DNA of 64,000 bases, taken from NCBI RefSeq assembly GCF_051903065.1, contig NZ_CP178438.1. One strand, given 5' to 3'. Both the position numbers and the translations under genes were made by a program. Below are positions 4,339 through 41,931 of this stretch, piece after piece. Positions within the stretch are counted from its first letter, which is position 1. Each line of letters opens with the position of its first letter. Below the pieces are notes generated by a model, which had not been told where the DNA came from, made no database searches, and worked only from the letters and a program-made list of their open reading frames with translations. Source of the stretch: Escherichia coli. GTDB lineage: Bacteria > Pseudomonadota > Gammaproteobacteria > Enterobacterales > Enterobacteriaceae.

Positions 4339-4504
4339 TGTCTCTCGCCTGGGGTGGAAACGGTTGGCCGCAATCGCGACACATCATCAGTATTTTGCCG
4401 CAGTATAACATGAAGGCGTCTTTGTTGTTATGCAACGGTTGGAGCAGCGTTCACCTGACGCTATACTGCTTCTCTTTCTTATTGCTCAAACTGTCGACAT
4501 TACT

Positions 4505-5296: not shown

Positions 5297-5340
5297 ACCC
5301 AGAAAAGGAGTTTCCCCTGGAACACATTTCTACTACTACG

Positions 5341-6603
5341 TTGATCATTATTCTGATCATCATGGTGGTCATTTCAGCCTATTTTTCCGGGTCCGAAACC
5401 GGAATGATGACCCTCAACCGCTATCGTCTGCGACATATGGCGAAACAGGGTAATCGCTCGGCCAAACGCGTCGAAAAATTGCTGCGTAAGCCAGACCGCC
5501 TGATAAGCCTGGTGTTAATCGGCAATAACCTGGTCAATATTCTTGCCTCCGCGCTCGGCACTATTGTTGGGATGCGTTTGTACGGCGATGCGGGCGTGGC
5601 AATTGCGACTGGTGTGCTGACTTTTGTCGTACTGGTTTTTGCTGAGGTATTGCCGAAAACCATTGCCGCGCTGTACCCGGAAAAAGTCGCTTATCCAAGT
5701 AGTTTTCTGCTGTCTCCGCTGCAAATTTTGATGATGCCGCTGGTCTGGTTGCTGAATGCTATCACCCGTATGCTGATGCGCATGATGGGTATCAAAACCG
5801 ATATCGTGGTTAGCGGCTCTTTGAGCAAAGAAGAGTTGCGCACTATCGTGCACGAATCGCGCTCACAAATTTCCCGTCGCAATCAGGATATGCTGCTGTC
5901 GGTGCTCGATCTGGAAAAAATGACCGTTGATGACATCATGGTGCCGCGCAGTGAAATTATCGGTATTGATATCAACGATGACTGGAAATCTATTCTGCGC
6001 CAACTCTCCCACTCACCTCACGGGCGCATCGTGCTCTACCGTGATTCGCTGGACGACGCCATCAGTATGCTGCGAGTACGTGAAGCCTGGCGGTTGATGT
6101 CGGAGAAAAAAGAGTTCACCAAAGAAACCATGCTGCGCGCCGCGGACGAGATCTATTTTGTGCCGGAAGGTACGCCGCTCAGCACGCAGTTGGTAAAGTT
6201 TCAGCGCAACAAAAAGAAAGTCGGCCTGGTCGTCAACGAGTATGGAGACATTCAGGGGCTGGTGACGGTTGAAGATATTCTGGAAGAGATTGTCGGCGAT
6301 TTCACTACGTCGATGTCGCCAACACTTGCCGAAGAGGTCACGCCGCAAAACGACGGTTCGGTGATTATCGATGGCACCGCCAACGTGCGGGAAATCAACA
6401 AAGCCTTTAACTGGCATCTACCGGAAGATGATGCCCGCACGGTTAATGGCGTCATTCTTGAGGCACTGGAAGAGATCCCTGTCGCAGGCACCCGCGTGCG
6501 TATTGGCGAGTACGATATCGATATTCTCGACGTACAGGACAATATGATTAAGCAGGTAAAAGTTTTTCCTGTGAAACCGCTGCGCGAGAGTGTGGCGGAG
6601 TAA
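5341..6603 (+). CDS. yfjD: CorB/YfjD-type Mg/Co efflux protein (CNNM TM domain, CBS pair, CorC_HlyC)
   Basis: 420-aa ORF with N-terminal TM region and a C-terminal domain typical of CorC/HlyC-type transporters. Confidence 0.85.
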   Translation: MIIILIIMVVISAYFSGSETGMMTLNRYRLRHMAKQGNRSAKRVEKLLRKPDRLISLVLIGNNLVNILASALGTIVGMRLYGDAGVAIATGVLTFVVLVFAEVLPKTIAALYPEKVAYPSSFLLSPLQILMMPLVWLLNAITRMLMRMMGIKTDIVVSGSLSKEELRTIVHESRSQISRRNQDMLLSVLDLEKMTVDDIMVPRSEIIGIDINDDWKSILRQLSHSPHGRIVLYRDSLDDAISMLRVREAWRLMSEKKEFTKETMLRAADEIYFVPEGTPLSTQLVKFQRNKKKVGLVVNEYGDIQGLVTVEDILEEIVGDFTTSMSPTLAEEVTPQNDGSVIIDGTANVREINKAFNWHLPEDDARTVNGVILEALEEIPVAGTRVRIGEYDIDILDVQDNMIKQVKVFPVKPLRESVAE

Positions 6604-8252: not shown

Positions 8253-8271
8253 TTTTACGCCAGCCTCTTTA

Positions 8272-8287
8272 CTGTATATAAAACCAG
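8272..8287. promoter_or_regulatory. LexA box 1 upstream of recN
   Basis: CTGTATATAAAACCAG (CTGT-N8-CCAG), overlapping the promoter region about 50 bp upstream of recN. Confidence 0.7.
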
Positions 8288-8293
8288 TTTATA

Positions 8294-8309
8294 CTGTACA
8301 CAATAACAG
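8294..8309. promoter_or_regulatory. LexA box 2 upstream of recN
   Basis: CTGTACACAATAACAG, a perfect CTGT-N8-ACAG SOS box. Confidence 0.8.
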
Positions 8310-8337
8310 TAATGGTTTTTCATACAGGAAAACGACT

Positions 8338-9999
8338 ATGTTGGCACAACTGACCATCAGCAACTTTGCTATCGTTCGTGAGCTTGAGATTGATTTTCAT
8401 AGCGGCATGACCGTAATAACTGGCGAGACCGGCGCGGGTAAATCTATTGCAATAGATGCCCTCGGTCTTTGTCTCGGTGGTCGCGCTGAAGCCGACATGG
8501 TGCGTACCGGCGCTGCTCGCGCTGACCTGTGCGCCCGTTTTTCTCTGAAAGATACGCCAGCGGCTCTGCGCTGGCTGGAAGAAAACCAGCTTGAAGACGG
8601 GCATGAATGTTTGCTTCGTCGCGTGATCAGCAGCGATGGTCGCTCCCGTGGTTTCATCAACGGTACAGCTGTTCCTCTGTCACAACTGCGCGAACTGGGT
8701 CAGTTGCTGATTCAGATCCATGGTCAGCACGCTCATCAGTTACTCACCAAACCCGAGCACCAAAAGTTCCTGCTTGATGGCTATGCCAATGAAACCTCTC
8801 TACTCCAGGAAATGACCGCACGTTATCAGTTGTGGCATCAAAGCTGCCGTGACCTCGCGCATCATCAACAGTTAAGTCAGGAACGCGCCGCCCGTGCGGA
8901 ACTGCTGCAATACCAATTAAAAGAACTTAACGAATTTAATCCGCAGCCCGGAGAGTTTGAGCAAATCGACGAAGAGTACAAACGTCTGGCGAACAGCGGT
9001 CAATTGCTGACCACCAGCCAGAATGCTTTGGCATTAATGGCCGACGGTGAAGACGCAAACCTGCAAAGTCAGCTTTACACGGCTAAACAACTGGTGAGCG
9101 AATTGATTGGCATGGACAGCAAACTGTCCGGCGTACTTGATATGCTGGAAGAAGCTACCATCCAGATTGCTGAAGCCAGCGACGAACTGCGCCACTACTG
9201 CGATCGTTTGGATCTCGATCCCAACCGGCTGTTTGAACTTGAACAACGCATCTCAAAACAGATTTCGCTGGCACGTAAACATCACGTCAGCCCTGAGGCA
9301 TTACCACAGTATTACCAGTCGCTACTGGAAGAACAGCAGCAACTGGACGATCAGGCCGACTCACAAGAAACGCTCGCGCTGGCGGTAACGAAACATCATC
9401 AGCAGGCACTGGAAACCGCGCGCGCATTACACCAACAACGCCAGCAATATGCAGAAGAACTTGCACAGCTGATCACCGACAGTATGCATGCGCTCTCAAT
9501 GCCGCATGGGCAGTTTACGATCGATGTTAAATTTGACGAACATCACCTGGGCGCTGACGGTGCCGATCGTATTGAGTTTCGGGTAACCACCAACCCAGGT
9601 CAGCCAATGCAGCCTATTGCCAAAGTCGCATCCGGTGGTGAATTGTCCCGCATCGCACTGGCAATCCAGGTCATCACAGCGCGTAAAATGGAAACCCCGG
9701 CACTGATTTTTGATGAAGTGGATGTAGGGATTAGCGGTCCAACAGCGGCAGTTGTCGGCAAACTGCTGCGTCAACTCGGCGAATCAACTCAGGTGATGTG
9801 TGTTACCCACCTGCCACAAGTCGCGGGATGTGGTCATCAACACTATTTTGTCAGCAAAGAAACCGATGGTGCGATGACAGAAACGCATATGCAATCTCTG
9901 GATAAAAAAGCGCGGTTACAAGAGCTGGCGCGCCTGCTTGGTGGCAGTGAAGTCACACGTAACACACTGGCGAATGCGAAAGAACTGCTTGCGGCGTAA
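8338..9999 (+). CDS. recN: DNA repair protein RecN
   Basis: 553-aa SMC-like ORF with Walker A (GETGAGKS) and a long coiled coil; preceded by LexA boxes. Confidence 0.95.
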
Positions 10000-11438: not shown

Positions 11439-11921
11439 ATGACGAAGAAAAAAGCACATAAACCTGGTTCAGCGACCATCGCGCTTAACAAGCGCGCCCG
11501 TCACGAATACTTTATCGAAGAAGAGTTCGAAGCGGGACTTGCCCTGCAAGGCTGGGAAGTTAAATCCCTGCGCGCAGGAAAAGCCAATATCAGCGACAGC
11601 TACGTCCTTCTGCGTGACGGAGAGGCATTTCTGTTTGGCGCTAACATCACGCCAATGGCCGTGGCCTCCACGCATGTGGTGTGCGATCCTACCCGTACCC
11701 GCAAGTTACTTCTCAACCAGCGCGAACTGGACTCATTGTACGGTCGCGTCAATCGAGAAGGCTATACCGTAGTGGCGCTCTCCCTGTACTGGAAAAATGC
11801 CTGGTGCAAAGTGAAAATCGGCGTCGCCAAAGGTAAGAAACAGCACGATAAACGTTCAGATATCAAAGAGCGCGAATGGCAGGTGGATAAAGCGCGTATC
11901 ATGAAAAACGCCCACCGTTAA
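11439..11921 (+). CDS. smpB: SsrA-binding protein SmpB
   Basis: 160-aa [37 protein letters not shown]; immediately upstream of ssrA. Confidence 0.95.
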
Positions 11922-12135: not shown

Positions 12136-12498
12136 GGGGCTGATTCTGGATTCGACGGGATTTGCGAAACCCAAGGTGCATGCCGAGGGGCGGTTGGCCT
12201 CGTAAAAAGCCGCAAAAAATAGTCGCAAACGACGAAAACTACGCTTTAGCAGCTTAATAACCTGCTTAGAGCCCTCTCTCCCTAGCCTCCGCTCTTAGGA
12301 CGGGGATCAAGAGAGGTCAAACCCAAAAGAGATCGCGTGGAAGCCCTGCCTGGGGTTGAAGCGTTAAAACTTAATCAGGCTAGTTTGTTAGTGGCGTGTC
12401 CGTCCGCAGCTGGCAAGCGAATGTAAAGACTGACTAAGCATGTAGTACCGAGGATGTAGGAATTTCGGACGCGGGTTCAACTCCCGCCAGCTCCACCA
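12136..12498 (+). ncRNA. ssrA: tmRNA (SsrA), intact 363 nt
   Basis: Starts GGGGCTGATTCTGGATTCGACGGG, contains the tag-peptide reading frame region and ends ...GGTTCAACTCCCGCCAGCTCCACCA. Confidence 0.95.
12454..12498. repeat. Prophage attachment-site repeat, ssrA-proximal copy (45 bp)
   Basis: ATGTAGGAATTTCGGACGCGGGTTCAACTCCCGCCAGCTCCACCA is repeated exactly at 45935-45979. Confidence 0.9.
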
Positions 12499-12621: not shown

Positions 12622-13104
12622 ATGGAAGAACTTCACTTTGTTTACATCAATGCAAATGGTCGTATCGGTGTTCACTCAATACAGAGCATCAGTTATAGCG
12701 AAAATCATATACAGGGCATTTGTAAGAACACCGATCGAATAAAAACCTTCCGAAAAGACCGCATTCTTAAACAGTACGATTCACCAGAACAAGCCATTCA
12801 GGAATGCGCGTCATTCCTCCCCGAAAACTACTCACATCTCACTAAGCAGTCTGGTCCGAAAAAAAATACATTCGATGTGTGCTTCACCGGATTTAAGAAA
12901 GCAGATAAAGAAAGATTGGTTGATAAGGCGAATGAACAAGGATTAACGGTAAGAACCTCTGTAACCCAAAGCCTTCAGATGCTCTGTTGCGGTTACAATG
13001 CAGGCCCATCAAAAGTATCGGCAGCCAGGATGAAAGGCACAATCATCATAGATGAGCCTGGCTTTATACATTTTCTTGAAACGGGTGAGATCCCAGATGA
13101 ATAA
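12622..13104 (+). CDS. Prophage cargo protein with WYL-like N-terminal segment and BRCT-like C-terminal segment
   Basis: 160-aa ORF between ssrA and ogr; N-terminal ...KTFRKDRI resembles the WYL-domain signature; C-terminal VCFTGF...GTIIIDEPGFIHFL resembles BRCT; by-eye assignments only. Confidence 0.55.
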   Translation: MEELHFVYINANGRIGVHSIQSISYSENHIQGICKNTDRIKTFRKDRILKQYDSPEQAIQECASFLPENYSHLTKQSGPKKNTFDVCFTGFKKADKERLVDKANEQGLTVRTSVTQSLQMLCCGYNAGPSKVSAARMKGTIIIDEPGFIHFLETGEIPDE

Positions 13105-13130
13105 AAACCTGCCGTAGCAGGTTCTCTTTC

Positions 13131-13349
13131 TCAAAAATTCATATGCCCCTGACCACCTGGCAATGGATGTGGAGGGGCTGTAGCAATCAATGCAGGTGTC
13201 ACAATAAACCGGACCACTGTTTCATGGGTAACAAAAGTGCTCCCGCAGTTAATATTTTGGCACTGGCAGTAACGCTCTTTGGTGCTTTCTGTTACTTGAA
13301 AACTGCTCCTTGTGTGCGCCGCATGACCACACTTCGGACAATTCATCAT
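13131..13349 (-). CDS. ogr: Ogr/Delta-type zinc-finger late-gene activator
   Basis: CPKCGH...CQCQNINC four-Cys finger; start set at the internal Met of the listed 87-aa ORF; adjacent to gene D. Confidence 0.8.
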   Translation of the reverse strand: MMNCPKCGHAAHTRSSFQVTESTKERYCQCQNINCGSTFVTHETVVRFIVTPALIATAPPHPLPGGQGHMNF

Positions 13350-13417
13350 ATCCAGATCCCTACCTTTGCTATCAGAATCATTGTAATGATACACAAAATA
13401 TCAATATTGAGAACACT

Positions 13418-14518
13418 TTATTCCATTTCAAGATCATCAATCTTCACTTCGAGTTCAATACTGGTTGTAAAACCGTTATCCGGGCTGACGGTATGTGTCA
13501 GAGTCGTAATGGTCCATTCCGCATCATCTATCGGCTGTTTAAAGCCACTGACTTTCACTGGCATTTCCGTGTAGAGATCTGCCCGACCTTCCGCCAGTTG
13601 TAGCGAGAATGACGCAACGCCGCGTTGCAGGCGTTCCCACTGCATTTTCGCTGCCCGTTCAGCGTTGCTCCGGTTGGCATAAGTGCGATTAAGTACCAGC
13701 ACGTTTTCATCCGTACCCACCAGGTAATCGCCCTGCTTTGCTTCCGGCTCTTTCTTCTGCTTTGCGGTCCTGCGCTTACGCTTCACCGTGGTGCTTTCTT
13801 TCTTCGCGGGTTCGCGGGTATGCAACCAACTGGCAATTACGCCCGTATAGGCTCCGCGATCTGCCAGGGTAAAGCGGTGACTGTCGCCGTCCTTGCGTGT
13901 GATAGTGATCACCGGCAGAGGTTTACCGCTGGCGCTTTTGCCCTGTCCCTGCCGGATGAATAACAGATTGCCATTTTTCACCGACGCAATAGCACCGTAC
14001 TGGCGCGCCAGCCGCATCAGAAAACTGCCGTCACTCTCATTGGTCTGGTCTATATGTTCCACGGGCTTATCCGACAGGTCTTTACCCAGTGCCATCTTCA
14101 GCTTGTGCCGCGCGGCTATTTCCTTCACCACTTCCCCGACGGTGGTCTTGTGCCACGACTTTTCACGACGGGTATTCAGCGTTTCCCGAAAATCAGCACT
14201 TCGCGCCCGGATAGTCAGGCGGTCCGGTGCGCCAGTGTGTTCAATCTCGTCCACCGTGAATGCCCCTTTAGGGAAAAGCGGCTGCCCCTTCCAGCCCAGC
14301 GCCAGCGTAATGACCGCACCACGGCGCGGCAGCACGATTTTTCCGTCGGCGTCGTCCAGCTCCAGATCAAGCTGGTCCGCTTCAAAGCCCCGATTGTCCG
14401 TCAGAGTCAAACTCATCAGGCGGTTATCCAGCACAGTGGTGATATCCCTGCCCTCAATACTGATGCTGAATGCGGGAGTTTTGTTGCCTTTGTTAAGCAG
14501 TTCAGAGCTGAAATTCAC
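13418..14518 (-). CDS. Tail protein D (late control gene D family)
   Basis: 366-aa ORF at the P2 D position; overlaps the U stop. Confidence 0.85.
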   Translation of the reverse strand: MNFSSELLNKGNKTPAFSISIEGRDITTVLDNRLMSLTLTDNRGFEADQLDLELDDADGKIVLPRRGAVITLALGWKGQPLFPKGAFTVDEIEHTGAPDRLTIRARSADFRETLNTRREKSWHKTTVGEVVKEIAARHKLKMALGKDLSDKPVEHIDQTNESDGSFLMRLARQYGAIASVKNGNLLFIRQGQGKSASGKPLPVITITRKDGDSHRFTLADRGAYTGVIASWLHTREPAKKESTTVKRKRRTAKQKKEPEAKQGDYLVGTDENVLVLNRTYANRSNAERAAKMQWERLQRGVASFSLQLAEGRADLYTEMPVKVSGFKQPIDDAEWTITTLTHTVSPDNGFTTSIELEVKIDDLEME

Positions 14519-31683: not shown

Positions 31684-33450
31684 ATGAACACCACACTGAC
31701 ACCCGCAGATCTCGATCCCCGTCGGCAGGCCATGCTGCTGTACTTTCAGGGATACCGCGTCGCCCGCATTGCTGAAATGCTAGGCGAGAAAGTTGCAACC
31801 GTTCACAGCTGGAAAAAACGCGACAAGTGGGGTGACTATGGGCCGCTGGATCAGATGCAGCTCACCACCGCCGCACGCTACTGCCAGCTCATTATGAAGG
31901 AGCACAAAGAAGGGAAAGATTTCAAAGAGATTGACCTGCTGGCGCGCCAGTCGGAGCGCCACGCGCGGATCGGCAAGTTTAACAATGGCGGCAACGAAGC
32001 CGACTTAAACCCTAACGTCGCCAACCGCAACAAAGGCCCACGCCGTCAGCCGGAAAAGAATGTTTTCACCGATGAACAGATTGAGAAGCTGGAAGAAATC
32101 TTCCATTCCTCCATGTTCAACTACCAGCGCCACTGGTGGGAAGCCGGAAAAACCAACCGCATCCGCAACCTGCTGAAGTCACGCCAGATCGGCGCAACCT
32201 TCTATTTTGCCCGTGAAGCCCTGATTGACGCCCTGCTGACCGGACGTAACCAGATTTTCCTTTCCGCCAGCAAGGCACAGGCCCACGTCTTTAAGCAGTA
32301 CATCATCGACTTCGCCAAAGAAGTGGAGGTGGAGCTGAAAGGTGATCCGATGGTGCTTCCTAACGGTGCCACGCTTTACTTCCTCGGCACCAATGCCCGC
32401 ACTGCCCAGAGTTATCACGGCAACCTGTATCTGGATGAATATTTCTGGATACCGAAATTTCAGGAGCTGCGCAAAGTGGCTTCCGGTATGGCTATTCACA
32501 AAAAATGGCGACAAACCTATTTTTCCACGCCATCCAGCCTGACACACAGTGCTTATCCGTTCTGGTCCGGTGCGCTGTTCAACCGTGGACGCAACAAAGC
32601 CGACAAGGTGGACATCGACCTGTCCCACAGCAATCTGGCCCCCGGCCTGCTGTGCGCAGACGGGCAATACCGCCAGATAGTCACCGTGGAAGATGCGGTG
32701 CGCGGCGGCTGTAACCTGTTCGACCTCGACCAGCTACGCATGGAGTACAGCCCGGACGAATACCAGAACCTGCTGATGTGCGAGTTCGTGGACGATCTCG
32801 CGTCCGTGTTCCCGCTCAGCGAACTGCAGGCGTGCATGGTGGACAGTTGGGAAGTCTGGACCGACTTTCATGCACTGGCCCTGCGCCCGTTTGGCTGGCG
32901 CGAGGTGTGGATCGGTTATGACCCGGCAAAAGGTACGCAGAACGGCGACAGCGCCGGATGCGTGGTGGTGGCACCGCCAGCCGTGCCAGGCGGTAAGTTT
33001 CGCATTCTTGAGCGTCACCAGTGGCGCGGGATGGACTTCCGCGCCCAGGCTGACGCCATCAAAAAACTGACCGAACAGTACAACGTGACCTATATCGGCA
33101 TCGACTCGACAGGTGTCGGTCACGGGGTTTACGAGAACGTGAAAGCGTTCTTTCCTGCCGTCCGGGAGTTTGTCTACAACCCCAACGTTAAAAACGCCCT
33201 GGTACTCAAAGCCTACGACATTATCAGTCACCGTCGTCTGGAGTTTGACGCCGGACACACCGACATAGCGCAGTCATTTATGGCAATCCGTCGCGCCACC
33301 ACCGCCAGTGGCAACCGCCCGACCTATGAAGCCAGCCGCAGCGAAGAAGCCAGCCACGCCGATCTGGCCTGGGCAACGATGCACGCACTGTTTAACGAAC
33401 CGCTGCAGGGCGAGTCCGCCAATACCAGCAATATTGTGGAGATTTTTTGA
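31684..33450 (+). CDS. Terminase ATPase (large) subunit P
   Basis: 588-aa ORF; divergent from O and coupled to Q. Confidence 0.9.
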   Translation: MNTTLTPADLDPRRQAMLLYFQGYRVARIAEMLGEKVATVHSWKKRDKWGDYGPLDQMQLTTAARYCQLIMKEHKEGKDFKEIDLLARQSERHARIGKFNNGGNEADLNPNVANRNKGPRRQPEKNVFTDEQIEKLEEIFHSSMFNYQRHWWEAGKTNRIRNLLKSRQIGATFYFAREALIDALLTGRNQIFLSASKAQAHVFKQYIIDFAKEVEVELKGDPMVLPNGATLYFLGTNARTAQSYHGNLYLDEYFWIPKFQELRKVASGMAIHKKWRQTYFSTPSSLTHSAYPFWSGALFNRGRNKADKVDIDLSHSNLAPGLLCADGQYRQIVTVEDAVRGGCNLFDLDQLRMEYSPDEYQNLLMCEFVDDLASVFPLSELQACMVDSWEVWTDFHALALRPFGWREVWIGYDPAKGTQNGDSAGCVVVAPPAVPGGKFRILERHQWRGMDFRAQADAIKKLTEQYNVTYIGIDSTGVGHGVYENVKAFFPAVREFVYNPNVKNALVLKAYDIISHRRLEFDAGHTDIAQSFMAIRRATTASGNRPTYEASRSEEASHADLAWATMHALFNEPLQGESANTSNIVEIF

Positions 33451-34475
33451 TGGGAAAGAGTAAGAAAAACCGCGCTGCGGCGACGAATCAGCTCAAGCAT
33501 AAAAGCCAAACTTCAGCCGAAGCATTCAGCTTCGGTGATCCCATTCCAGTACTTGACCGCCGCGAACTGCTGGACTATGTGGAATGCGTACAGACGGATC
33601 GCTGGTATGAGCCACCCGTAAGTTTTGACGGACTGGCGCGAACATTCCGCGCCGCCGTTCACCACAGCTCACCGATTGCAGTGAAATGCAACATTCTGAC
33701 CAGTACCTACATCCCTCACCCGCTGCTCAGCCAGCAGGCTTTTTCGCGTTTTGTGCAGGACTATCTGGTTTTTGGTAACGCCTACCTGGAGAAACGCACG
33801 AACCGGTTCGGTGAAGTGATCGCCATTGAGCCTGCTCTGGCAAAATACACCCGACGCGGGTTAGACCTTGATACCTACTGGTTTGTGCAATACGGTATGA
33901 CAACCCAGCCGTATCAGTTCACGAAAGGCAACATTTTTCATCTGATGGAACCTGACATTAACCAGGAGATCTACGGCCTGCCCAGCTATCTTTCTGCTAT
34001 TCCGTCCGCCCTGCTCAACGAGTCCGCCACGCTGTTCCGCCGCAAGTATTACATTAACGGCAGCCATGCAGGTTTCATCATGTACATGACCGATGCCGCG
34101 CAGAACCAGGAGGATGTGAACAACCTCCGCAACGCGATGAAAAGCGCCAAAGGTCCAGGCAATTTCCGCAACCTGTTTATGTACTCGCCTAACGGCAAAA
34201 AAGACGGACTTCAGATCATTCCTCTGTCTGAAGTCGCGGCGAAGGATGAGTTTTTAAACATCAAGAACGTGAGCCGGGACGATATGATGGCTGCGCATCG
34301 TGTTCCGCCACAGATGATGGGGATCATGCCGAATAATGTTGGGGGGTTTGGGGATGTGGAGAAGGCCAGCCGCGTGTTTGTCCGAAATGAATTGATGCCG
34401 CTTCAAAAATGTCTTGAAGGTATCAATTGTTGGCTAGATGCAGATGTAATAAAGTTTAACCAATACATTTTGTAA
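33447..34475 (+). CDS. Portal (capsid vertex) protein Q
   Basis: 342-aa ORF, size and position of P2 Q. Confidence 0.9.
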   Translation: MMGKSKKNRAAATNQLKHKSQTSAEAFSFGDPIPVLDRRELLDYVECVQTDRWYEPPVSFDGLARTFRAAVHHSSPIAVKCNILTSTYIPHPLLSQQAFSRFVQDYLVFGNAYLEKRTNRFGEVIAIEPALAKYTRRGLDLDTYWFVQYGMTTQPYQFTKGNIFHLMEPDINQEIYGLPSYLSAIPSALLNESATLFRRKYYINGSHAGFIMYMTDAAQNQEDVNNLRNAMKSAKGPGNFRNLFMYSPNGKKDGLQIIPLSEVAAKDEFLNIKNVSRDDMMAAHRVPPQMMGIMPNNVGGFGDVEKASRVFVRNELMPLQKCLEGINCWLDADVIKFNQYIL

Positions 34476-34483
34476 ATTCCTTC

Positions 34484-34511
34484 GGTAAAAGGCCGCTATG
34501 CGGCCTTTTTT
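34484..34511. terminator. Bidirectional terminator between Q and the cargo operon
   Basis: AAAAGGCCGC-TAT-GCGGCCTTTTTT hairpin between convergent gene ends. Confidence 0.8.
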
Positions 34512-35202
34512 AATTTGCGTCATCATTTTTTTTATTTTCTAAAGACTCAATATACCCTCGCAAATTAAATTCTTTATTTTCTCTGAGTTTAGGTCCTTCT
34601 TTAGTATCTGAGCCTCGTTGCTCACGTAAACTTTTATTCAAAGCATCGATCAATTCTTGTCTAGAGATTTCCGTTGCAATTAACCCATCAAAATATCTCT
34701 TCATTTTTCTCGCGCTCTCGGTTACTTTAACAACTTCAAAACCAAGGCAGAGCAAATAAATTAGCGTTGTTATTGTAAATCCAGTATCTACAGAGATAAA
34801 ATAGCCAATATCGAGCACTTTCTTAAGTGATTCCAAGGGCATAACCATGCACAATAAAACCAAAAGCAAACCAGTGCCAAGATATAAATAAGTCATTGAG
34901 TTTCTTTCAATCAGCTTGAAGTACTCATCTCTCTGACCTTCAAAGCTAGCAACAATCTTAGGGGGTGTTTTTTTTGGAAGATCGAGGTCTCGAATTTTAT
35001 CCTGAAGATCTACGTATCTTTTAATAAGTAAACCGACTATGGCAGCAGTGATTAATGAAAGCGTTTTCGATAAAATATTGCCCATTTCCACGAGCACATT
35101 TAATTTATAATTAATCAGATATACTACACTCGATGCCAATACTCCACTTAAAATGGATAATATTATATAAAACGCATATCGCTCCACTCGATTTTTAATC
35201 AT
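34510..35202 (-). CDS. Cargo protein B: predicted 4-TM membrane protein with charged C-terminal tail
   Basis: 230-aa ORF with four hydrophobic helices (approx. residues 9-30, 43-60, 96-114, 133-149); AT-rich; start overlaps the stop of the upstream ORF (ATGA). Confidence 0.7.
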   Translation of the reverse strand: MIKNRVERYAFYIILSILSGVLASSVVYLINYKLNVLVEMGNILSKTLSLITAAIVGLLIKRYVDLQDKIRDLDLPKKTPPKIVASFEGQRDEYFKLIERNSMTYLYLGTGLLLVLLCMVMPLESLKKVLDIGYFISVDTGFTITTLIYLLCLGFEVVKVTESARKMKRYFDGLIATEISRQELIDALNKSLREQRGSDTKEGPKLRENKEFNLRGYIESLENKKNDDAN

Positions 35203-36230
35203 GGATTTATTACCCCATCAGCTAACAATCTGAGCAACCACTCTACCATTTCCTCACAAACGCTATCAATAACAGGCATCCCATTATTATATTCAATATT
35301 GACGGTGTCTTTTATTTGTATTTCGTCATTTCTTAAAATACCTGCGCCTTTTAACTCTATGGTTAATGCTTCATCACGGTTATCGATAAGAGCCTCCGTA
35401 ATTTTCCTTAAAATATTTTGTTCCTCATCATTAGCTTTATATTTATACCCTATAGAAACATCTATCGTTAAATGTTCTCGAGACATGTCAACTGAAACAT
35501 CCTGTGATGCATTGTGTTTACGCAACACATCAACTCTGTGCTCACCGATAAGAGATTTCAATAATTCACTAGCGACATCATCTACTCCATCTCCATAAGA
35601 GGATAGAGGCAGCTTCAAGCTTACATTTTTTACATTGCTACGCATCAGCAATTCATTAGTCAAACGTAAATTTCCTGCTTGTAATATAATAAAGTTATCA
35701 ACATCAACCCTTAGATTATCCTTCAAAATGTAATTAATATAATTTTCAATATCTTTAATTCTAATTGCACGACTTTGCAATATTATTACATGATTTTTGA
35801 CAATCCCGATATATGCAACACTATCTAAATATTCTTTCGGAACACTTCCAGTAAGCTTTAATGCTTCATAAGCCAATCGATTTTTTTTATATTCTGAAAC
35901 ATCAAAAACTGGCACACTATTCCCTGGCTCAATATAAACTATTTCACCAAAAAATATACCATTCCGTTCGAAGGAATCAGATAAAACCATGTGCGCGTGG
36001 CTGCTAACACAAGGGTCACTATCTCCAGTTTCAAGATAGTAAATTCTGTCCTCAACGGTTGGAAACTTGTGATTAACAATTTCGTTCATACGATTCTGCA
36101 AATCACTTGCTAAAAGAGCATCCTTTTTAGGAAGCATTACTGCGTGTCGATAGTGTAACGCTTTAACTTTTGAGGGATTACTGGCCATGAAACATCCATT
36201 ATTAATCTTAGATTTAGTGATATGGAACAA
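35199..36230 (-). CDS. Cargo protein A: soluble protein of unknown function
   Basis: 343-aa ORF (start may be the internal MASNPSK); AT-rich; no motif recognised; translationally coupled to the 4-TM ORF. Confidence 0.7.
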   Translation of the reverse strand: MFHITKSKINNGCFMASNPSKVKALHYRHAVMLPKKDALLASDLQNRMNEIVNHKFPTVEDRIYYLETGDSDPCVSSHAHMVLSDSFERNGIFFGEIVYIEPGNSVPVFDVSEYKKNRLAYEALKLTGSVPKEYLDSVAYIGIVKNHVIILQSRAIRIKDIENYINYILKDNLRVDVDNFIILQAGNLRLTNELLMRSNVKNVSLKLPLSSYGDGVDDVASELLKSLIGEHRVDVLRKHNASQDVSVDMSREHLTIDVSIGYKYKANDEEQNILRKITEALIDNRDEALTIELKGAGILRNDEIQIKDTVNIEYNNGMPVIDSVCEEMVEWLLRLLADGVINP

Positions 36231-36274
36231 TCATACAATCTGTTAATTTTTCTTGCCACAACTCCTTTTCGCGC

Positions 36275-36294
36275 GCTCGTATCCCCGCCACGCC
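36275..36294. other. Putative cos (cohesive end) site, P2/186-like
   Basis: Reverse complement GGCGTGGCGGGGATACGAGC shares GGCGTGGCGGGGA with the remembered 186/P2 cos core; match is partial. Confidence 0.35.
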
Positions 36295-36498
36295 TGCCCG
36301 CTTTATGTAGTGGTTTTCATGCAGGTGCATGATCTACGCAAAAGCCCGCCAGTTCTGGCGGGCCTTAGCAAAAACGATCCTCAAACGATCATGCGATCTC
36401 ATGCGGCATAGACATGCACTACAGAGCTAACGCCTCGCAAGGGCTCGTTGTTCAACCTTGCTGACGCCAGAAACAAGTTCAGACGCCAGCAACGTTTC

Positions 36499-36804
36499 TT
36501 AATGCAGCCAGCTGTCGTCTTCCCACACCTTCTGCATAATTTTCATCACTTGTTTTCTTTCTTCGTCCAGTTGCAGTCCGGTCAGTTCCACACCGTTAGA
36601 GCTACCTTTGCGGATACGAATTACCGTTTTGGGATACAGGGGGCGCAGATTGCGGTAAAGCTCGGATTCAAGGGCGTCCAGTGTAGACTGGCTAATCTTC
36701 TGCTCTTTATCGATCATTATTTCAATGCGCATAAAAGTCACCTCAGCTGATGACATCCATTGAGCGGTTGTATTCGTGGGTTCTGATTTTTGCCATGAGT
36801 TCAT
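36499..36804 (-). CDS. DinI-family protein (Tum/DinI-like, SOS module)
   Basis: C-terminal part MRIEIMIDKEQK...LDALESELYRNLRPLYP...QKVWEDDSW resembles DinI; true start may be the internal Met. Confidence 0.65.
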   Translation of the reverse strand: MNSWQKSEPTNTTAQWMSSAEVTFMRIEIMIDKEQKISQSTLDALESELYRNLRPLYPKTVIRIRKGSSNGVELTGLQLDEERKQVMKIMQKVWEDDSWLH

Positions 36805-36931
36805 CTGTCAGTTCAGAAACCCACTGCAGAGCCAGCCCCTTCTCTTCATCACTACACTCACTAGCCGCTACAAGCTTAAGAAAAAAATCAATGCGCTGGA
36901 GCTTCAAAGACTCCAAAAAATAGTCCTGCAT
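36743..36931 (-). CDS. Small hypothetical protein, first gene of the LexA-controlled operon
   Basis: 62-aa ORF starting about 43 bp downstream of the LexA box. Confidence 0.45.
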   Translation of the reverse strand: MQDYFLESLKLQRIDFFLKLVAASECSDEEKGLALQWVSELTDELMAKIRTHEYNRSMDVIS

Positions 36932-36973
36932 CTTTCCTCCTATGACACCAAAGCAATACTGTATATATAATCA

Positions 36974-36989
36974 CTGTTTATATTTACAG
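36974..36989. promoter_or_regulatory. LexA (SOS) box in the prophage
   Basis: CTGTTTATATTTACAG, perfect CTGT-N8-ACAG, in an AT-rich promoter-like region upstream of the minus-strand small ORF and DinI-like gene. Confidence 0.75.
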
Positions 36990-37083
36990 TATATAATAAT
37001 CTTACTGATGTAAAACGTTTTTTTACGTTCATCAGCCTGATATGCCTGGTATTATTAAGAGCACGAATTGTTAACCCGCGTAA

Positions 37084-39498
37084 TTAATACAGGTTTCGCC
37101 ACTTATCATCTTCCTGCAAACGCTGGTTCCGATAGAAGATACGCAGGCCTGCTCCTGACGGAATACTGCCACCGCGAAGGAGTAAATCGACCTCTTTCTC
37201 GCTGCCATCAAATCCTCTGGACTTCAGTTCATAGACGAGCTGCTGTCGCTGATGATCTGTAATTCGCTGTTTGTAGTCTTTACGCCGTTTCGGCTTAACC
37301 AGGCGTAACCTTGCTGCCAGTTCCCGGCGCTCTTTTTTGCTCATACTGTGCAGATAATCGTGCAACTCCTTGTCATCCATGCGGGTAATATCCGTTCTGG
37401 TGTCCCCATCAGCTGATTTATCTTTCTCCTGTTGGTTCAAATTTTCAGCAAGGGGACAGTTATTGCCACGAGTCCAAGGGGCGCAAGCGCCCTGGTCGGC
37501 TACCGCCTCCTGAACGTCAACGGCTTTACGAACCATTTTCCACTTCACTGCATGAGTGCAGATCTTGCCCTCTGCAATGGGTGACCAGATGCCATAAATA
37601 CGAATGCCGTGATCGCCATAGGCGGTCGGCTCTTCGTTAATTTCATAAGCAGTTCTGATGAGGTGATATTTGCGGGGAACCAGTACGCCACCCTGCTTCA
37701 TGATGTAAGTGGCAAAACAACCAGCATCAGCAGCAGCCAGGATGGCATCAAGGCGCGGGTTATCCAGTACCGGCGCACCTGCTTTTTTGTCGCCCTGTTG
37801 CCTTGCCGCCTGACCAGCCAGCAATCGCAGTTCACGGTAAGCCTGACGCCCCGGAATACCAAAGAAGCGGAATTGCTGAACACGATGCAGAGACGCCCAG
37901 GCATTAACGTATTCAGCGTTATCACGCAGGGATTTACCCGTTTCCTTGCTGATCTCGCCAGCCAGACCACGCCCGTCAATGTTCTTACTAATGTATTTCG
38001 CAATGTAGCTTGTCGGCGTTCCTTTGCGCGGGTTTATCAGCTCAGACTTAAAGCGTGGCCCCGTGTTATTGCCCAGCTCCTCGCGGTCTTCACGGATGGC
38101 AAACTTACGCAACAATGCAGTAATGGCGCGGCGGTCTTTTTTGCGCATGAAACACAACAGGTGCCAGTGAACTGTGCCGTCATGATGCGGCTCAGCCACC
38201 CGCACGCCATACCAGCGCAACCCGGCTTTGTGCATAGCCTTACGAAATGCAGCAAACATGCCGACCAGATAATCGCTGCTTTGTCTTACTGTCGCGTTGG
38301 TCCAGGTCGGGTTTGGCCTGCCGTTATTTAGCGTGGAATGGAAACGTGACGGACAGGTGATGGTGTAGAAAACGGCGCAGTCACCACGCATTTCCGCGAT
38401 AAGCTCCAGGCCTTTAACACAGGCCATCATCTCGTTGCGGCGATGCGCCGGGTTGCTGCTGCTGGCGTTTACCACATCCTCCATGTTCAGCGTGTCGCCG
38501 TCTTCGTTCACCAGTTCATGAGAACGGAAAAACTCCAGCGACTTACGGCGCTGCTCACGTTTATGCATCACGGCTTCATAGCTAACATAGGGAGATGCTT
38601 TTTTGCTGACCAGGCAGACAGCACGCAACTGCTCTTCCCGCAATTCGCAACGCATCTTCCATAATTTCCGATACCACCAGTCGGCGCACAGCATACGCGC
38701 CAGCGAACCCGGAATGAGTTCATAAGGCACAGGTTTGCGGCGGTTTCTTTTCCGGCGGAGTTGCTCAAACGCAGGCGGTATGACATCCAGTCGCAGGGTT
38801 TCTGCAGCCACCTTTTCCCATGTCTTGCGGATTTCTTCTGGCTTAACATCATCGGAGGCGTACAAATCACCACAAGCGGCATCAAGACACATGCTCATAT
38901 GCGCAGCGACAAGGGTAGACAGGCGTTTCACCTGATCCTGACTCATTTCAGGCAGGATCAGCAGACCGTCCAGCCCCTCATGGCTTGCCATAAAACGAAA
39001 AGATGCAGATAGCTGGCTGTCGCGTACATGCTCCAGTCGTTCCAGACATGGCTTAATCGTCTCACGCAAATAGCGGGAATAAGCCTTTGGCCTGCCCATG
39101 CTGCTGAAATATTCAATACGTTGCATCAGCGGCTTGCTGATATGGGAAGGCTGGGCGTTGACGTCAGCCAGAATGACCATGTCTGGATTAAAACGCTGCT
39201 GCTCATGCGCCATCTTTGCCCGGCTAATGAGCTTATCCTGCTCCATTTCGCGTTGGACAGGATCACGGGATTCATTAAAGAAATAATGCTCCCAGACCTG
39301 ATCACTCAGTGCCTCGCGGCGCAGTTGTTCCTGCTCGTTATCGGTAGCGTACAGAGTGATCAGGTTTGAAAGCGCAGAAACCGGCGCAACTTCCGCCGGG
39401 TCCAGATAAGGGTTAATGGCCTTTTTCGGGCTGTTCCATGAGAACGCTGCGGCAGCCTCGTTAAAGCCGCAGCAGTTGTTCATATCGGCATGACTCAT
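37084..39498 (-). CDS. Replication initiation endonuclease A (rolling-circle, HUH-type)
   Basis: 804-aa ORF with HxH motif (GTVHWHLL); P2 gene A position. Confidence 0.88.
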
Positions 39499-40352
39499 GC
39501 ACGTACTCCGTACACGGCAGAACTATCCACGCCACGCGAATAATCAAATCCCACCCAGCAGCGCGGCCCGGAAACAGCAATGATTTCTGTTGCTGATTTA
39601 CCCTCGCCAGCTGCCACACCGATGCTGCGTTTTACCTTGATATAGTGGTGAATAAAATTGCGATACAGCGAACGGATCAGGGATGTGTCACTGTTAGAAA
39701 CAATGACCGGATGTCCTTCTGATGACCGATGTTCAAGAACGGATGCCAGGTGATACTGATCATCTTCAGTGAAACCATCAGTGTGATAGCCGGAAAACGT
39801 ACCGTCATACGGCGGATCGCAATACACCACATCCCCCGCCTTCAACATCGCCAGCGTTTCATCAAAGCTGGCGCAGATAAACGTTGCTCGCTGGGCTTTT
39901 TCTGCAAATGCGCGAATTTCTTTTTCAGGGAAATACGGATTTTTATAATTACCGTAGGGAATGTTGAAATGCCCGCTCTTGTTATAGCGACATAAACCAC
40001 GGTAACCGTGACGATTGAGATACAGGAAATATACCGCTTTCATGAAATCAGTAATTTCAGTTGAGTAATTAAACTCCTGCCTTATGTTGTAATAAGCCAC
40101 CTCCCTGTTTGCGATCTCAAATAAAACTCTGGCGCGAGATATAAACGATTCACAATCAGCAGCAACCTTTTTATAGAGGTTGATTAAATCAGGATTAATA
40201 TCCGCAACAAGATAGCTGGGGTACTCCGTCTCCATCATCACTGCACAGGAACCCGCGAAAGGTTCAACCAGTCGCGGGCCAGCAGGAAGGTGTTTTTTCA
40301 GTTCGGACATAATTGCGGTTTTATTTCCCGCCCATTTCAGGATGGTGCTCAT
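39495..40352 (-). CDS. DNA adenine methyltransferase (Dam-like orphan MTase)
   Basis: KWAGNK and DPPY motifs; stop overlaps the A start. Confidence 0.85.
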
Positions 40353-40576
40353 ACAGCACCTCCGTTGTAATGTTTGCCTTTCAGCTCTGCGATTTCCTGA
40401 CAGGTAATGCAAAGCTGCACTCCAGGAATGGCGCGGCGGCGTGCTGGCGGAATTGGCACTTCACATTCAATGCAAAGCACGCGAGACACGCCCGGTGTTT
40501 TGGCACGGGCAGCACGGATATGGCGCTGGCGTTCTTCTTCAACGCGCTGCTGTACGAGATCCATTGCATCAGCCAT
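40349..40576 (-). CDS. TraR/DksA-family C4 zinc-finger protein
   Basis: 75-aa ORF with CIECEVPIP...CITCQ four-Cys motif. Confidence 0.7.
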   Translation of the reverse strand: MADAMDLVQQRVEEERQRHIRAARAKTPGVSRVLCIECEVPIPPARRRAIPGVQLCITCQEIAELKGKHYNGGAV

Positions 40577-40815
40577 TAGTGGATCTCCTGCGCTTCGTTC
40601 TGGATTGCTTCAGCGGTCACACGCAGCAGTTCTGCCGCTTCGACGTGGTTTAGCTGGCGGGATGTGATATGACACGCAAGACTATCAAGGCGGGCAGCCA
40701 TTGCTTCAGCCCTTGCCCGGCGTTCTTCCAGACGAGCCTCTGTCAGTAAAATATTAAGCCCTACGTCATCCGGTCCGGTTTTAGTCGTGAGGGTTTCAAT
40801 ATTACGCATAATCAA
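40576..40815 (-). CDS. Hypothetical early-region protein
   Basis: 79-aa ORF coupled to neighbours. Confidence 0.45.
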   Translation of the reverse strand: MIMRNIETLTTKTGPDDVGLNILLTEARLEERRARAEAMAARLDSLACHITSRQLNHVEAAELLRVTAEAIQNEAQEIH

Positions 40816-40876
40816 TTCTCCTGAATTTAGATAAAGGGATGCCCGGCGGGTTTACGCCATTAATTTCATTAGTTGG

Positions 40877-41218
40877 TTAATTCGGCATGGTTAGCCGTCT
40901 GGGAAATAAGCTCACTACTGCACGAAAATGATTCATTGCTTTAATCAACTCCCGCTTTTCGTCAGTGGTCAGCTCATTAATGCTGATGCTATGACGTTCA
41001 GCTGGAATTTTTGCCATAAAGAATATGGCAGCCAGTGCCCGTTTATTTTGTTCGCTATTAATATCCCGTGGATCACGCATATCTTTAATAAACCGTTCAA
41101 GCTCTGACTCAATATTAAGACCAAAAACTTTCGCCCTTAACTCCGCAATATGATTAAGTCCATTCAGGCGTTCACCGGGGCTTAATGGAACAGTCGCCGC
41201 AGCGCCTTCAATAGCCAT
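40877..41218 (-). CDS. Hypothetical early-region protein
   Basis: 113-aa ORF in the early operon. Confidence 0.45.
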   Translation of the reverse strand: MAIEGAAATVPLSPGERLNGLNHIAELRAKVFGLNIESELERFIKDMRDPRDINSEQNKRALAAIFFMAKIPAERHSISINELTTDEKRELIKAMNHFRAVVSLFPRRLTMPN

Positions 41219-41412
41219 TTGTTCCCCCGTTTTTTCGTAGATAGTTCTGCCAGCAATTCATCTTGTGAACGGCACGGATGCCAGCGTTTACCATCCTCAC
41301 CCATGATCCAGCCGTGACCGTAGTGCATTGCCGGGCTTTGTTTAACCAGCAGCGATGCAAATGATGGTTCTTTCGTAAGCATAAGCACCTCACAGCAAAC
41401 CGAATGAAGCAC
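41182..41412 (-). CDS. Hypothetical small early protein
   Basis: 76-aa ORF overlapping neighbours; start uncertain. Confidence 0.3.
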   Translation of the reverse strand: MLHSVCCEVLMLTKEPSFASLLVKQSPAMHYGHGWIMGEDGKRWHPCRSQDELLAELSTKKRGNKWLLKALRRLFH

Positions 41413-41899
41413 CGAGGCCAGTCACGGTATCAACTGCACTCGCCATCGCAGGGTTAGCCTGTAAACGGGCCTGCAGTGAAACAGCAGCCAGCGCCATCAG
41501 TCGTGTTACAGAGTTAATGCTGCTGATAGCATCACGACGACCTGCACTGGTTTTTACATCGCCAGATACCGCACCTGCAGCAACACGCCCGATCTCTGCG
41601 GTTGCACTCATGACGTAATGCGGCAGTTTCTCTTTTGCTACCTCATTAATCGGTACACATGGCAGGCAGTGAATCTGTGCCAGAAAACCATCTATCAGCG
41701 TTGAATCTTCAGTCAGATCGGTAAGCAGCCAGATTTCTGGCGCATTGAGCTGATGCGGTTGATCTGGGTTGAGTTTGTTTCGCAGAGTCTGGACATTCAT
41801 TCCTGCACGTTCTGCCAGCTTCGCCATATTGTGACGAAGTGCAAAAGCTCTACAGGCTTCATCAAAATGCGGGTGTTTGGAAATCTTATAATCAAACAT
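41390..41899 (-). CDS. CII-like lysogeny establishment regulator (186 CII-type)
   Basis: 169-aa ORF with HTH (AERAGMNVQTLRNKLNP); resemblance to 186 CII from memory. Confidence 0.7.
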   Translation of the reverse strand: MFDYKISKHPHFDEACRAFALRHNMAKLAERAGMNVQTLRNKLNPDQPHQLNAPEIWLLTDLTEDSTLIDGFLAQIHCLPCVPINEVAKEKLPHYVMSATAEIGRVAAGAVSGDVKTSAGRRDAISSINSVTRLMALAAVSLQARLQANPAMASAVDTVTGLGASFGLL

Positions 41900-41931
41900 G
41901 CTACCCCCTTAGAAAGTTCTCATAATTGAAC

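Follow-up and report, generated by a model that had tools for sequence, protein, structure and literature searches.

Several phage operons that couple prophage induction to DNA damage have been described, and they differ in how the antirepressor is encoded. In the Escherichia coli HS prophage DuoHS, deletion of tum (ECHS_RS04495) and a lexA(Ind-) background each abolish mitomycin C induction, as reported in the Phollow study (PMC12055606). In the Salmonella LT2 prophage Fels-2, the mutagen MX induces the STM2726-STM2727-STM2728 operon; STM2727, which corresponds to the STM2726.1 named below, goes up 5.5- to 14.8-fold (PMC2225428). [quoted passage not shown] Double LexA boxes are known from colicin operons, where two LexA dimers are bound and repression is very tight (PMC2994835).

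The window analysed here is a stretch of 64,000 nucleotides of E. coli (contig NZ_CP178438.1, assembly GCF_051903065.1), and all positions are counted within it. It contains a prophage flanked by the tmRNA gene (ssrA), which we take to be the integration site of Fels-2 as well. Between the replicase gene gpA (37084-39498; Pfam Phage_GPA, E 2.4e-126) and cos this prophage carries a short minus-strand operon, an arrangement also seen in 186 (Table 1). A first-pass annotation, made from the sequence alone, had likened it to the tum operon of 186, which is SOS-inducible, and this parallel is borne out by the position, the promoter geometry, the presence of both Tum halves and the 186-type switch genes. 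The locus is very probably the already-described tum operon, that is, the SOS induction switch, of a Fels-2/186-like P2-family prophage at ssrA. The region was found in 1280 of 5426 complete E. coli genomes, about one quarter. An Rfam scan of positions 33000-46500 returned no family. This ssrA prophage carries the gene set that SOS induction would call for and may be inducible; in the relative BTP5, tum is expressed but the phage is undetectable (PMC7067206).

Table 1. Features of the tum operon and its surroundings, with positions in the window
Feature	Position	Strand	Basis or remark
186-type CI immunity repressor gene	42294..42926	+	33% identical to 186 CI, E 6e-36; presumed antirepressor target
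-35 hexamer TTTACA of the putative tum (p95-type) promoter	37009..37014	-	placed 17 nt upstream of TACTGT
-10 hexamer TACTGT, left arm of LexA box 1	36986..36991	-	as in the annotated 186 p95
LexA box 1, TACTGTAAATATAAACAGTG	36972..36991	-	predicted; core CTG-N10-CAG at 36974-36989
LexA box 2, CAGTGATTATATATACAGTA	36957..36976	-	predicted; core GTG-N10-CAG at 36959-36974
Shine-Dalgarno AGGAGG of ORF1	36936..36941	-	read from the sequence; conserved in relatives
ORF1, tumA-type antirepressor gene, 62 aa	36743..36931	-	homology to DuoHS tum and Fels-2 STM2728
ORF2, tumB / DinI-like gene, 77 aa	36499..36732	-	true start 36732, not 36804
Hairpin right after the DinI stop, no U-tract	36454..36496	-	-23.5 kcal/mol, z -5.45
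Conserved block GGTTGAACAACGAGCCCTTGCGAGGCGTTAGC	36426..36457	-	alignment of relatives
Intrinsic terminator predicted for the tum operon: GC-rich stem, loop of 4 nt, UUUU	36340..36366	-	folding, -23.4 kcal/mol, z -3.76
cos cohesive-end sequence GGCGTGGCGGGGATACGAG	36276..36294	-	likeness to the 186 terminus
Cargo promoter-like site GTGGCA-18-TATGAT, 9/12	36230..36259	-	consensus scan; variable DNA beyond cos
Two-gene cargo: 329 aa (ATG 36188), then a 230-aa hydrophobic protein	34510..36188	-	context, outside the tum operon

Promoter and LexA operator

The SOS box that the first-pass annotation had singled out, CTGTTTATATTTACAG, is present at 36974-36989, and the distance of about 43 bp that it had given to a small minus-strand gene agrees with the 42 nt measured from the end of the box to the ATG of the 62-aa ORF (ORF1). 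As a 20-mer read on the minus strand, this box (box 1) equals the LexA consensus at 17 of 20 positions. The spacing of 17 nt between the putative -35 hexamer and the -10 hexamer that lies within box 1 is kept in MLG42, SEN8 and ST437-OXA245phi4.1 despite differing spacer sequences, and each of the 11 loci compared has a full CTG-N10-CAG ahead of the homologous gene, even where protein identity falls to 41%. The motif CTGT-N8-ACAG occurs twice in the window, against 0.67 occurrences expected; the second copy belongs to the host recN promoter. Sites were ranked with a LexA matrix built from 19 E. coli sites and used solely for ranking within the window, as its scores do not reproduce published heterology index (HI) values (for example, umuDC 0.69 against a published 2.77, lexA2 4.43 against 8.31). 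In this ranking box 1 is the top-scoring site of the window outside the matrix training set.

A second predicted LexA box, which the first-pass annotation had overlooked, overlaps box 1, the two 16-nt cores having one base pair in common, and the composite pattern CTG-N10-CAGTG-N10-CAG is present at 36959-36989 with 0 mismatches. In box 2 the C expected in CTG is missing, which on its own would make it a poor LexA site; in the matrix ranking it outscores every background 20-mer of the window. Over the 21 nt CAGTGATTATATATACAGTAT, box 2 is identical to the box that lies nearest the promoter in the ColE1-type cea operator, and the double operator is about 86% identical to the colicin E1 operator over 48 nt. 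This resemblance between the ColE1 and tum operators may reflect either common descent or convergence. In a first MAFFT alignment box 2 had appeared as the counterpart of the 186 LexA box, an assignment that was overruled by the -35/-10 spacing in favour of box 1. The double LexA box operator, as predicted here, is a detail new for this locus.

The two genes and their products

Both ORFs described in the first-pass annotation, a small minus-strand ORF followed by an ORF of the DinI family (ORF2), are real and correctly placed. The out-of-frame overlap reported between them does not hold, as it arises only if the ATG at 36804, the first in frame, is taken as the beginning of the DinI ORF. The start of ORF2 is set at 36732 because DinI homology begins at MRIE. 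A Shine-Dalgarno GAGG overlaps the ORF1 stop codon, and a 234-nt ORF2 coding sequence is annotated alike in Fels-2, 813R9, MLG42, SEN8, ST437-OXA245phi4.1 and E. coli HS. Taken together, the annotated 234-nt coding sequence, the MRIE start and the GAGG motif place the two genes next to each other with a 10-nt gap. The first-pass annotation had allowed for either two genes or a Tum-like gene with a frameshift, and of these it is the former, as two intact adjacent genes, that is retained; annotation need not provide for an overlap or a frameshift.

ORF2 belongs to the DinI family (PF06183, E 6.6e-23, 81.3 bits, cut-off 24.2) and matches DinI of PDB entry 1ghh (E 2.7e-6). It is identical to DuoHS ECHS_RS04500 at 77 of 77 positions and aligns with PsP3 TumB end to end. 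It fails the NCBIfam model NF007893 of the E. coli DinI equivalog (42.7 bits, cut-off 111), and, judged by its sequence, is a phage DinI-like paralogue of the TumB type and not an orthologue of host dinI.

Alignment with 186 Tum, which the first-pass annotation had suggested, gives a plain result for ORF2, 41% identical to Tum residues 71-145 (E 3e-24), and a mixed one for ORF1, for which BLASTP finds no alignment with 186 Tum, nor with PsP3 TumA, whereas profile methods are positive. ORF1 matches phrog_698 (E 3.6e-38), which 186 Tum also matches (2.4e-5), and phrog_8554 is matched by both proteins; in hhalign the ORF1-family profile is aligned to 186 Tum with 95% probability (E 4e-8, residues 3-44 to 3-44), the comparison of the family with the single PsP3 TumA sequence being weak (8.7%). 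By these profile methods ORF1 and the N-terminal half of Tum are remotely homologous. It is identical at 61 of 62 residues both to E. coli HS ECHS_RS04495 and to Fels-2 STM2728, and the AlphaFold model is a two-helix hairpin (pLDDT 89.5). A 62-aa "hypothetical protein", elsewhere mislabelled "levan regulatory protein", that is present in about one quarter of complete E. coli genomes can thus be named a Tum-type antirepressor.

Two other readings of this gene pair have to be weighed. Since 186 Tum is a single 146-aa protein joining both halves, and the longest-ORF reading yields two overlapping frames, the locus might be taken for a decayed, frameshifted tum pseudogene of the 186 type with both halves non-functional. 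This is scarcely credible: the two genes, each with its own Shine-Dalgarno sequence, are conserved across six genera of Peduoviridae, the ORF1 family is large (484 database relatives) and has conserved columns, deletion of the 62-aa gene abolishes DuoHS induction (PMC12055606), and it is 186 Tum that has been described as the fused form (PMC3121763). The small gene moreover stands alone in ESSI-2-type phages, behind a LexA box and without DinI, which also speaks against the other reading, a very improbable one, in which the DinI-like protein would be the induction effector, for example via RecA, and ORF1 an unrelated small leader peptide. A curated family assignment does exist for ORF2 only, ORF1 having no match in Pfam or NCBIfam and its family none in a PDB sequence search; but the DuoHS deletion is in frame and confined to the ORF1 orthologue, and the profile that matches the N-terminal half of Tum is that of the ORF1 family. 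The locus is therefore read as two intact genes, the first of them probably encoding the antirepressor.

Downstream hairpins, cos and the cargo genes

Two hairpins lie between ORF2 and cos (Table 1). The position of the first is also filled by hairpins with other stem sequences in 186, PsP3 and MLG42, and the conserved block GGTTGAACAACGAGCCCTTGCGAGGCGTTAGC is found in 186, PsP3, MLG42, 813R9 and 500465-1 and is missing from Fels-2 and DuoHS. The second, which has the features of a terminator and had been overlooked by the first-pass annotation, keeps its stem in Fels-2, 813R9 and DuoHS, where alignments show variation in the loop alone. A consensus terminator scan did not list this hairpin, probably because its stem rule absorbs the U-tract, and it was found by folding. 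Further downstream, the cos sequence is identical in Fels-2, 813R9, MLG42 and DuoHS; its flank, cataaagcgggca, matches cataaagtgggca at the right end of 186. Sequence conservation among relatives ends about 10 nt past cos, from which it follows that the DNA upstream of the cargo comes with the cassette itself.

The cargo occupies the known P2 gpA-gpQ defence hotspot (PMC9122126). Its two proteins have no match in Pfam, PADLOC or NCBIfam, and the first matches phrog_3482, a family of unknown function. The first-pass annotation had put the cargo some 270 bp further on, in agreement with the 269 nt that separate the DinI stop at 36499 from the start of the longest cargo ORF at 36230 on the same strand. 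It had also proposed that SOS transcription from the tum promoter could pass the hairpins and cos, and so make the candidate defence operon SOS-inducible. This is unlikely in our assessment, although several observations agree with it: the cargo shares its strand with tum and follows the DinI stop at a distance of 269-311 nt; a U-tract is absent from the first hairpin and is only four U long in the second, so that termination may be incomplete; the cargo promoter-like site is weak, with such sites being as numerous in the region as expected by chance; in 186 the first p95 terminator, t95a, carries the annotation partial, and orf97 beyond it still belongs to the SOS operon; and the third Fels-2 gene, STM2726, has been placed in the MX-responsive operon (PMC2225428). 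Against read-through stand the conserved GC-rich hairpin of about -23 kcal/mol with its U-tract between dinI and cos, the p95 terminator t95b annotated for 186 in the corresponding dinI-to-cos interval, and the upstream DNA with which each cargo comes. Systems of this hotspot have also been found active on plasmids from their native promoters (PMC9122126), the gene after dinI is oriented oppositely in SEN8 and ST437-OXA245phi4.1, and the matrix scan of the window gave no LexA-like site near the cargo. The evidence favours a cargo under its own promoter rather than under SOS control.

It is conceivable, if doubtful, that the Fels-2/DuoHS lineage took up, or converged on, a colicin-type double operator, or that leakage through the four-U terminator boosts the cargo under strong SOS induction. 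If true, the double operator would lead to induction at a higher threshold and at a later time than in the single-box phages 186 and PsP3, and neither its acquisition nor a terminator leak would change the basic known mechanism. The colicin-like double operator amounts to a small, testable refinement of how the induction threshold may be set in such phages.

Proposed mechanism and comparison with described systems

The prophage has the switch genes that such a mechanism involves, with a CII next to CI that is 70% identical to 186 CII and a gene in the Apl position. In the lysogen, LexA bound to both of the overlapping operators would mask the -10 hexamer and the transcript start and so keep TTTACA-17-TACTGT silent, and upon DNA damage the RecA-stimulated cleavage of LexA would derepress the promoter. 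The short transcript is predicted to code for two separate proteins. The 62-aa helical-hairpin antirepressor of the TumA type probably inactivates the 186-type CI, a kind of repressor that answers to an antirepressor and not to RecA-mediated cleavage, by protein-protein binding and so leads to lytic growth, and the 77-aa DinI-like TumB presumably modulates RecA filaments and, through them, the SOS signal. In all likelihood the transcript stops at the GC-rich hairpin with its U-tract, about 50 nt before cos.

DuoHS has essentially the same promoter, double operator, 62-aa gene, DinI-like gene, terminator hairpin and cos, the locus being about 98% identical; it differs in that a further gene, ECHS_RS25360 (225 aa), separates dinI from the terminator, in its cargo beyond cos and in its integration near rcdA/ybjL instead of ssrA. 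In Fels-2 (STM2728/STM2726.1) box 1 is identical and box 2 near-identical, and terminator and cos are the same, whereas a third operon gene, STM2726 (243 aa), is present and the cargo beyond cos is STM2723.1.

PsP3 tumA/tumB share the split layout, the position and LexA control, with the antirepressor upstream and the DinI-like gene downstream; PsP3 TumA, however, falls into PHROG 1993 and not into 698 as ORF1 does, the relation being remote only, and a single LexA box lies 20 nt from the start codon. The likeness to 186 tum extends to the location between gene A and cos, the TACTGT -10 inside the LexA box and the CI/Apl/CII-type switch. The annotated p95 promoter reads TTCACA-18-TACTGT, against TTTACA-17-TACTGT in the window, and 186 differs further in having one LexA box, one fused Tum with internal starts, and an operon that crosses the partial terminator t95a into orf97 before reaching t95b. 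The genes orf97, STM2726 and ECHS_RS25360 occupy the same third-gene slot, and neither STM2726 nor ECHS_RS25360 has detectable similarity to orf97; an orf97 deletion was not called for the window, since the slot genes STM2726 and ECHS_RS25360 are unlike orf97. According to the 186 annotation, orf97 expressed from a plasmid blocks 186 infection.

Outside this family, the cea operator of ColE1 likewise has two LexA boxes whose 16-nt cores have one base pair in common, but there the boxes are downstream of a separate -10, whereas box 1 of the window contains the -10. The Gifsy gfoA/gftA genes form a comparable LexA-controlled operon, in which a DinI homologue is combined with a small antirepressor directed against a non-cleavable repressor (PMC3121763); they differ in that dinI comes first, in belonging to lambdoid phages, and in having an antirepressor and a repressor from unrelated families (PMC3121763).

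A two-gene SOS operon between gpA and cos

The window carries recN, smpB and the tmRNA gene, the latter being the likely integration site of the P2-family prophage that follows it. On the minus strand, the order is a Dam-like methylase, gpA, the promoter/operator, ORF1 (62 aa, tumA type), the DinI-like ORF2 (77 aa, tumB type), two hairpins, cos and a two-gene cargo, past which the portal gene gpQ lies on the plus strand. Genes of the immunity region include those for a 186-type CI (33% identity, E 6e-36), a CII sharing 70% identity with 186 CII, and an integrase; an 80-aa ORF occupies the Apl position. From gpA to cos, the DNA shares 95-98% identity with many Peduoviridae, Fels-2 among them, and of 5426 complete E. 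coli genomes, 1280 carry this region.

Features of the locus and third genes of related phages
Feature	Sequence	Position	Strand	Remarks
recN	window	8338-9999		host; three LexA boxes in front, 8270-8329
smpB	window	11439-11921
tmRNA gene	window	12136-12498
cos GGCGTGGCGGGGATACGAG	window	36276-36294	minus	flank matches 186 right terminus
Terminator-like hairpin	window	36340-36366		GC-rich stem, 4-nt loop, UUUU; -23.4 kcal/mol, z -3.76
First hairpin	window	36454-36496		no U-tract; -23.5 kcal/mol, z -5.45; directly past ORF2 stop
ORF2	window	36499-36732	minus
ORF1	window	36743-36931	minus
LexA box 2 CAGTGATTATATATACAGTA	window	36957-36976		core GTG-N10-CAG, one base pair shared with box 1 core
LexA box 1 core CTGTTTATATTTACAG	window	36974-36989
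-10 hexamer TACTGT	window	36986-36991	minus
-35 hexamer TTTACA	window	37009-37014	minus	17 nt upstream of TACTGT
Replicase gpA	window	37084-39498	minus	Phage_GPA 2.4e-126
orf97	186 (L003)	3105-3836		third gene
STM2726	Fels-2 (L001)	3662-4393		third gene
ECHS_RS25360	DuoHS (L014)	5166-5843		third gene

The first-pass annotation had described an SOS box, then a small ORF and a DinI-family ORF, and the sequence matches this description (ORF2 belongs to Pfam PF06183, E 6.6e-23). The out-of-frame overlap that it reported between the ORFs is an artefact of a longest-ORF call (36499-36804): DinI homology begins at MRIE, with an ATG at 36732, a GAGG Shine-Dalgarno sequence overlaps the ORF1 stop codon, and a 234-nt CDS of identical length is annotated in Fels-2, 813R9, MLG42, SEN8, ST437-OXA245phi4.1 and E. 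coli HS. The alternative of a frameshifted Tum gene was rejected, since both genes are intact and adjacent, 10 nt apart.

ORF1 is identical at 61 of 62 residues to Fels-2 STM2728 and likewise to ECHS_RS04495 of E. coli HS, and ORF2 at 77 of 77 to the DinI-like gene of the HS prophage DuoHS. The supplement of the Phollow study lists its tum deletion under the locus tag ECHS_RS04495; its authors showed that mitomycin-C-induced lysis and virion formation of DuoHS are abolished by delta-tum and likewise by lexA(Ind-) (PMC12055606). Microarray work has listed STM2726-STM2727-STM2728 as an operon responsive to the mutagen MX, with STM2727 induced 5.5- to 14.8-fold by MX alongside the classical LexA regulon (PMC2225428). 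ORF2 is a DinI family member and not an equivalog of host DinI, scoring 42.7 bits against a cut-off of 111. ORF1 is predicted by AlphaFold to form a two-helix hairpin (pLDDT 89.5); a sequence search of solved structures gave no entry related to it.

Elsewhere in the window, a 585-aa protein (43955-45712, minus) scores 420.5 bits (cut-off 400) with NF041025, the NCBIfam equivalog named 'anti-phage dCTP deaminase'; the stop codons of its gene and of the prophage integrase are 13 nt apart, and a 1046-aa ORF (46140-49280) follows it. Two ORFs of 160 and 143 aa (12622-13574), the first with only a weak DEDDh-exonuclease-like match, lie between the tmRNA gene and a gpD-like gene (13418-14518) and may be att-proximal cargo.

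SOS promoter and double LexA operator

The 20-mer of box 1 on the minus (coding) strand, TACTGTAAATATAAACAGTG, agrees with the LexA consensus at 17 of 20 positions; the box 1 core ends 42 nt before the ORF1 ATG (36931). The 64-kb window has two matches to CTGT-N8-ACAG where 0.67 would be expected; besides that of box 1, the other copy (8294-8309) is one of the three boxes 5' of recN (named by NCBIfam), and therefore both matches lie at SOS promoters. The 186 p95 promoter is annotated as TTCACA-18-TACTGT with the LexA site beginning at the -10 hexamer, a layout that the window promoter copies. MLG42, SEN8 and ST437-OXA245phi4.1 share the 17-nt spacing of the window promoter despite differing spacer sequences.

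A single SOS box had been claimed here; box 1 is indeed present, but the tum operator consists of two overlapping boxes, matching the composite CTG-N10-CAGTG-N10-CAG with 0 mismatches. Ranked by a matrix of our own construction, boxes 1 and 2 exceed every 20-mer of the window outside the matrix's training set. In contrast, 186, PsP3 and ESSI-2 phages have a single box. A 56-nt operator query matched 563 plasmids, mostly mobilizable, the matches lying directly upstream of the colicin gene in ColE1-type plasmids; the colicin operator is ~86% identical to the tum operator over 48 nt, with box 2 identical over 21 nt. In colicin operons, such double boxes are occupied by two LexA dimers, and repression is very tight (PMC2994835); by analogy, the double box would keep the tum promoter tightly repressed and set a high threshold for its induction. 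No mention of a double LexA box in P2-like phages was found in the literature covered, from which the primary Fels-2 paper was absent.

The operon end and the cargo beyond cos

The first-pass annotation had raised the possibility that SOS transcription reads through from the tum operon into the cargo. The geometry would permit this, the cargo lying on the same strand, 269-311 nt from the DinI stop. Such read-through is quite unlikely and remains unsupported, the short U-tract of the terminator-like hairpin being what leaves some room for it. Past the first hairpin, the terminator-like hairpin stands between ORF2 and cos; its stem is kept in Fels-2, 813R9 and DuoHS, with changes confined to the loop, always ~50 nt before cos, and in 186 the annotated terminator t95b ends the p95 transcript in the same interval. 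A consensus terminator scan did not list this hairpin. Conservation among relatives ends ~10 nt beyond cos, where each phage carries different cargo; no LexA-like site lies near the cargo in the matrix ranking of the window, and a promoter-like site in the variable DNA (36259-36230, 9/12) offers weak evidence of separate expression. Moreover, the cargo sits in the cos-adjacent gpA-gpQ defence hotspot of P2-like phages, systems of which were active from native promoters (PMC9122126).

The cargo (34510-36188, minus) consists of two genes that overlap by 4 nt. The first product, of 329 aa, matches phrog_3482 (unknown function); the second, of 230 aa, is hydrophobic. Pfam, PADLOC and NCBIfam gave no match for either, so they constitute a candidate defence pair that is as yet uncharacterised. 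Between cargo and gpQ, a hairpin (34487-34509) has an A-run on one side and a T-run on the other, a pattern seen in bidirectional terminators.

Within 36426-36496 the first hairpin is followed by a conserved block, GGTTGAACAACGAGCC..GCGAGGCGTTAG. Hairpin and block mark where the SOS operon ends in 186 (~3840-3915), PsP3 (L004, ~3955-4030), MLG42 (L010, ~1632-1708), 813R9, 500465-1 and the window, and are missing from Fels-2 and DuoHS; the stem sequence varies between phages with pairing retained, and no Rfam match was obtained.

Comparison with known tum operons

A third gene stands between dinI and the terminator in 186 (orf97), Fels-2 (STM2726) and DuoHS (ECHS_RS25360), the latter two showing no detectable similarity to orf97, whose expression from a plasmid blocks 186 infection. 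SOS-controlled accessory genes therefore exist in the tum-operon family; their slot, a second variable one that lies to the gpA side of cos, is empty in the window.

Residues 71-145 of 186 Tum (146 aa) are 41% identical to ORF2, while BLASTP detected no similarity between Tum and ORF1. ORF1 belongs to phrog_698 (3.6e-38), with weaker matches to phrog_8554 and phrog_1993; 186 Tum matches phrog_1993, phrog_8554 and phrog_698 (2.4e-5), and PsP3 TumA is phrog_1993. An exhaustive search yielded 66 representative ORF1 relatives, nearly all of 50-75 aa, and a profile built from a 30-sequence alignment drawn from them matched Tum residues 3-44 in hhalign (probability 95%, E 4e-8); as judged by profile methods, ORF1 and 186 Tum are connected. 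A stop codon has been described as dividing tum in Fels-2 and PsP3, the upstream PsP3 gene encoding the antirepressor (PMC3121763). The PsP3 record annotates the split genes as tumA and tumB, and in ESSI-2-type phages the small gene stands alone behind a LexA box without a DinI gene, the antirepressor and DinI modules therefore being separable.

The TumA-like genes of ESSI2_ev015 (L008, 1201-1413) and Cronobacter phage ESSI-2 (L009, 1201-1425; unannotated in its record) are 41-49% identical to ORF1, each with a single LexA box upstream and no DinI-like gene downstream. In Escherichia phage 500465-1 (L013, 1201-1731), the start of the DinI-like gene has lost 1 nt (GAAATAATG to GAATAATG), tumA is altered locally (EERGWLCSG), and the replicase is truncated and adjoins a transposase; the induction module of this phage may be decaying.

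The first-pass annotation correctly recognised a tum operon: every feature of the 186/PsP3/Fels-2 operon that sequence can address is found, namely the LexA-controlled promoter, the gpA-to-cos position, the antirepressor and DinI-like halves and a cognate 186-type CI. The functional features have been demonstrated in loci ~98% identical to that of the window. The module is already known, is common and has been characterised by experiment, and the colicin-like double operator is the sole increment over it.
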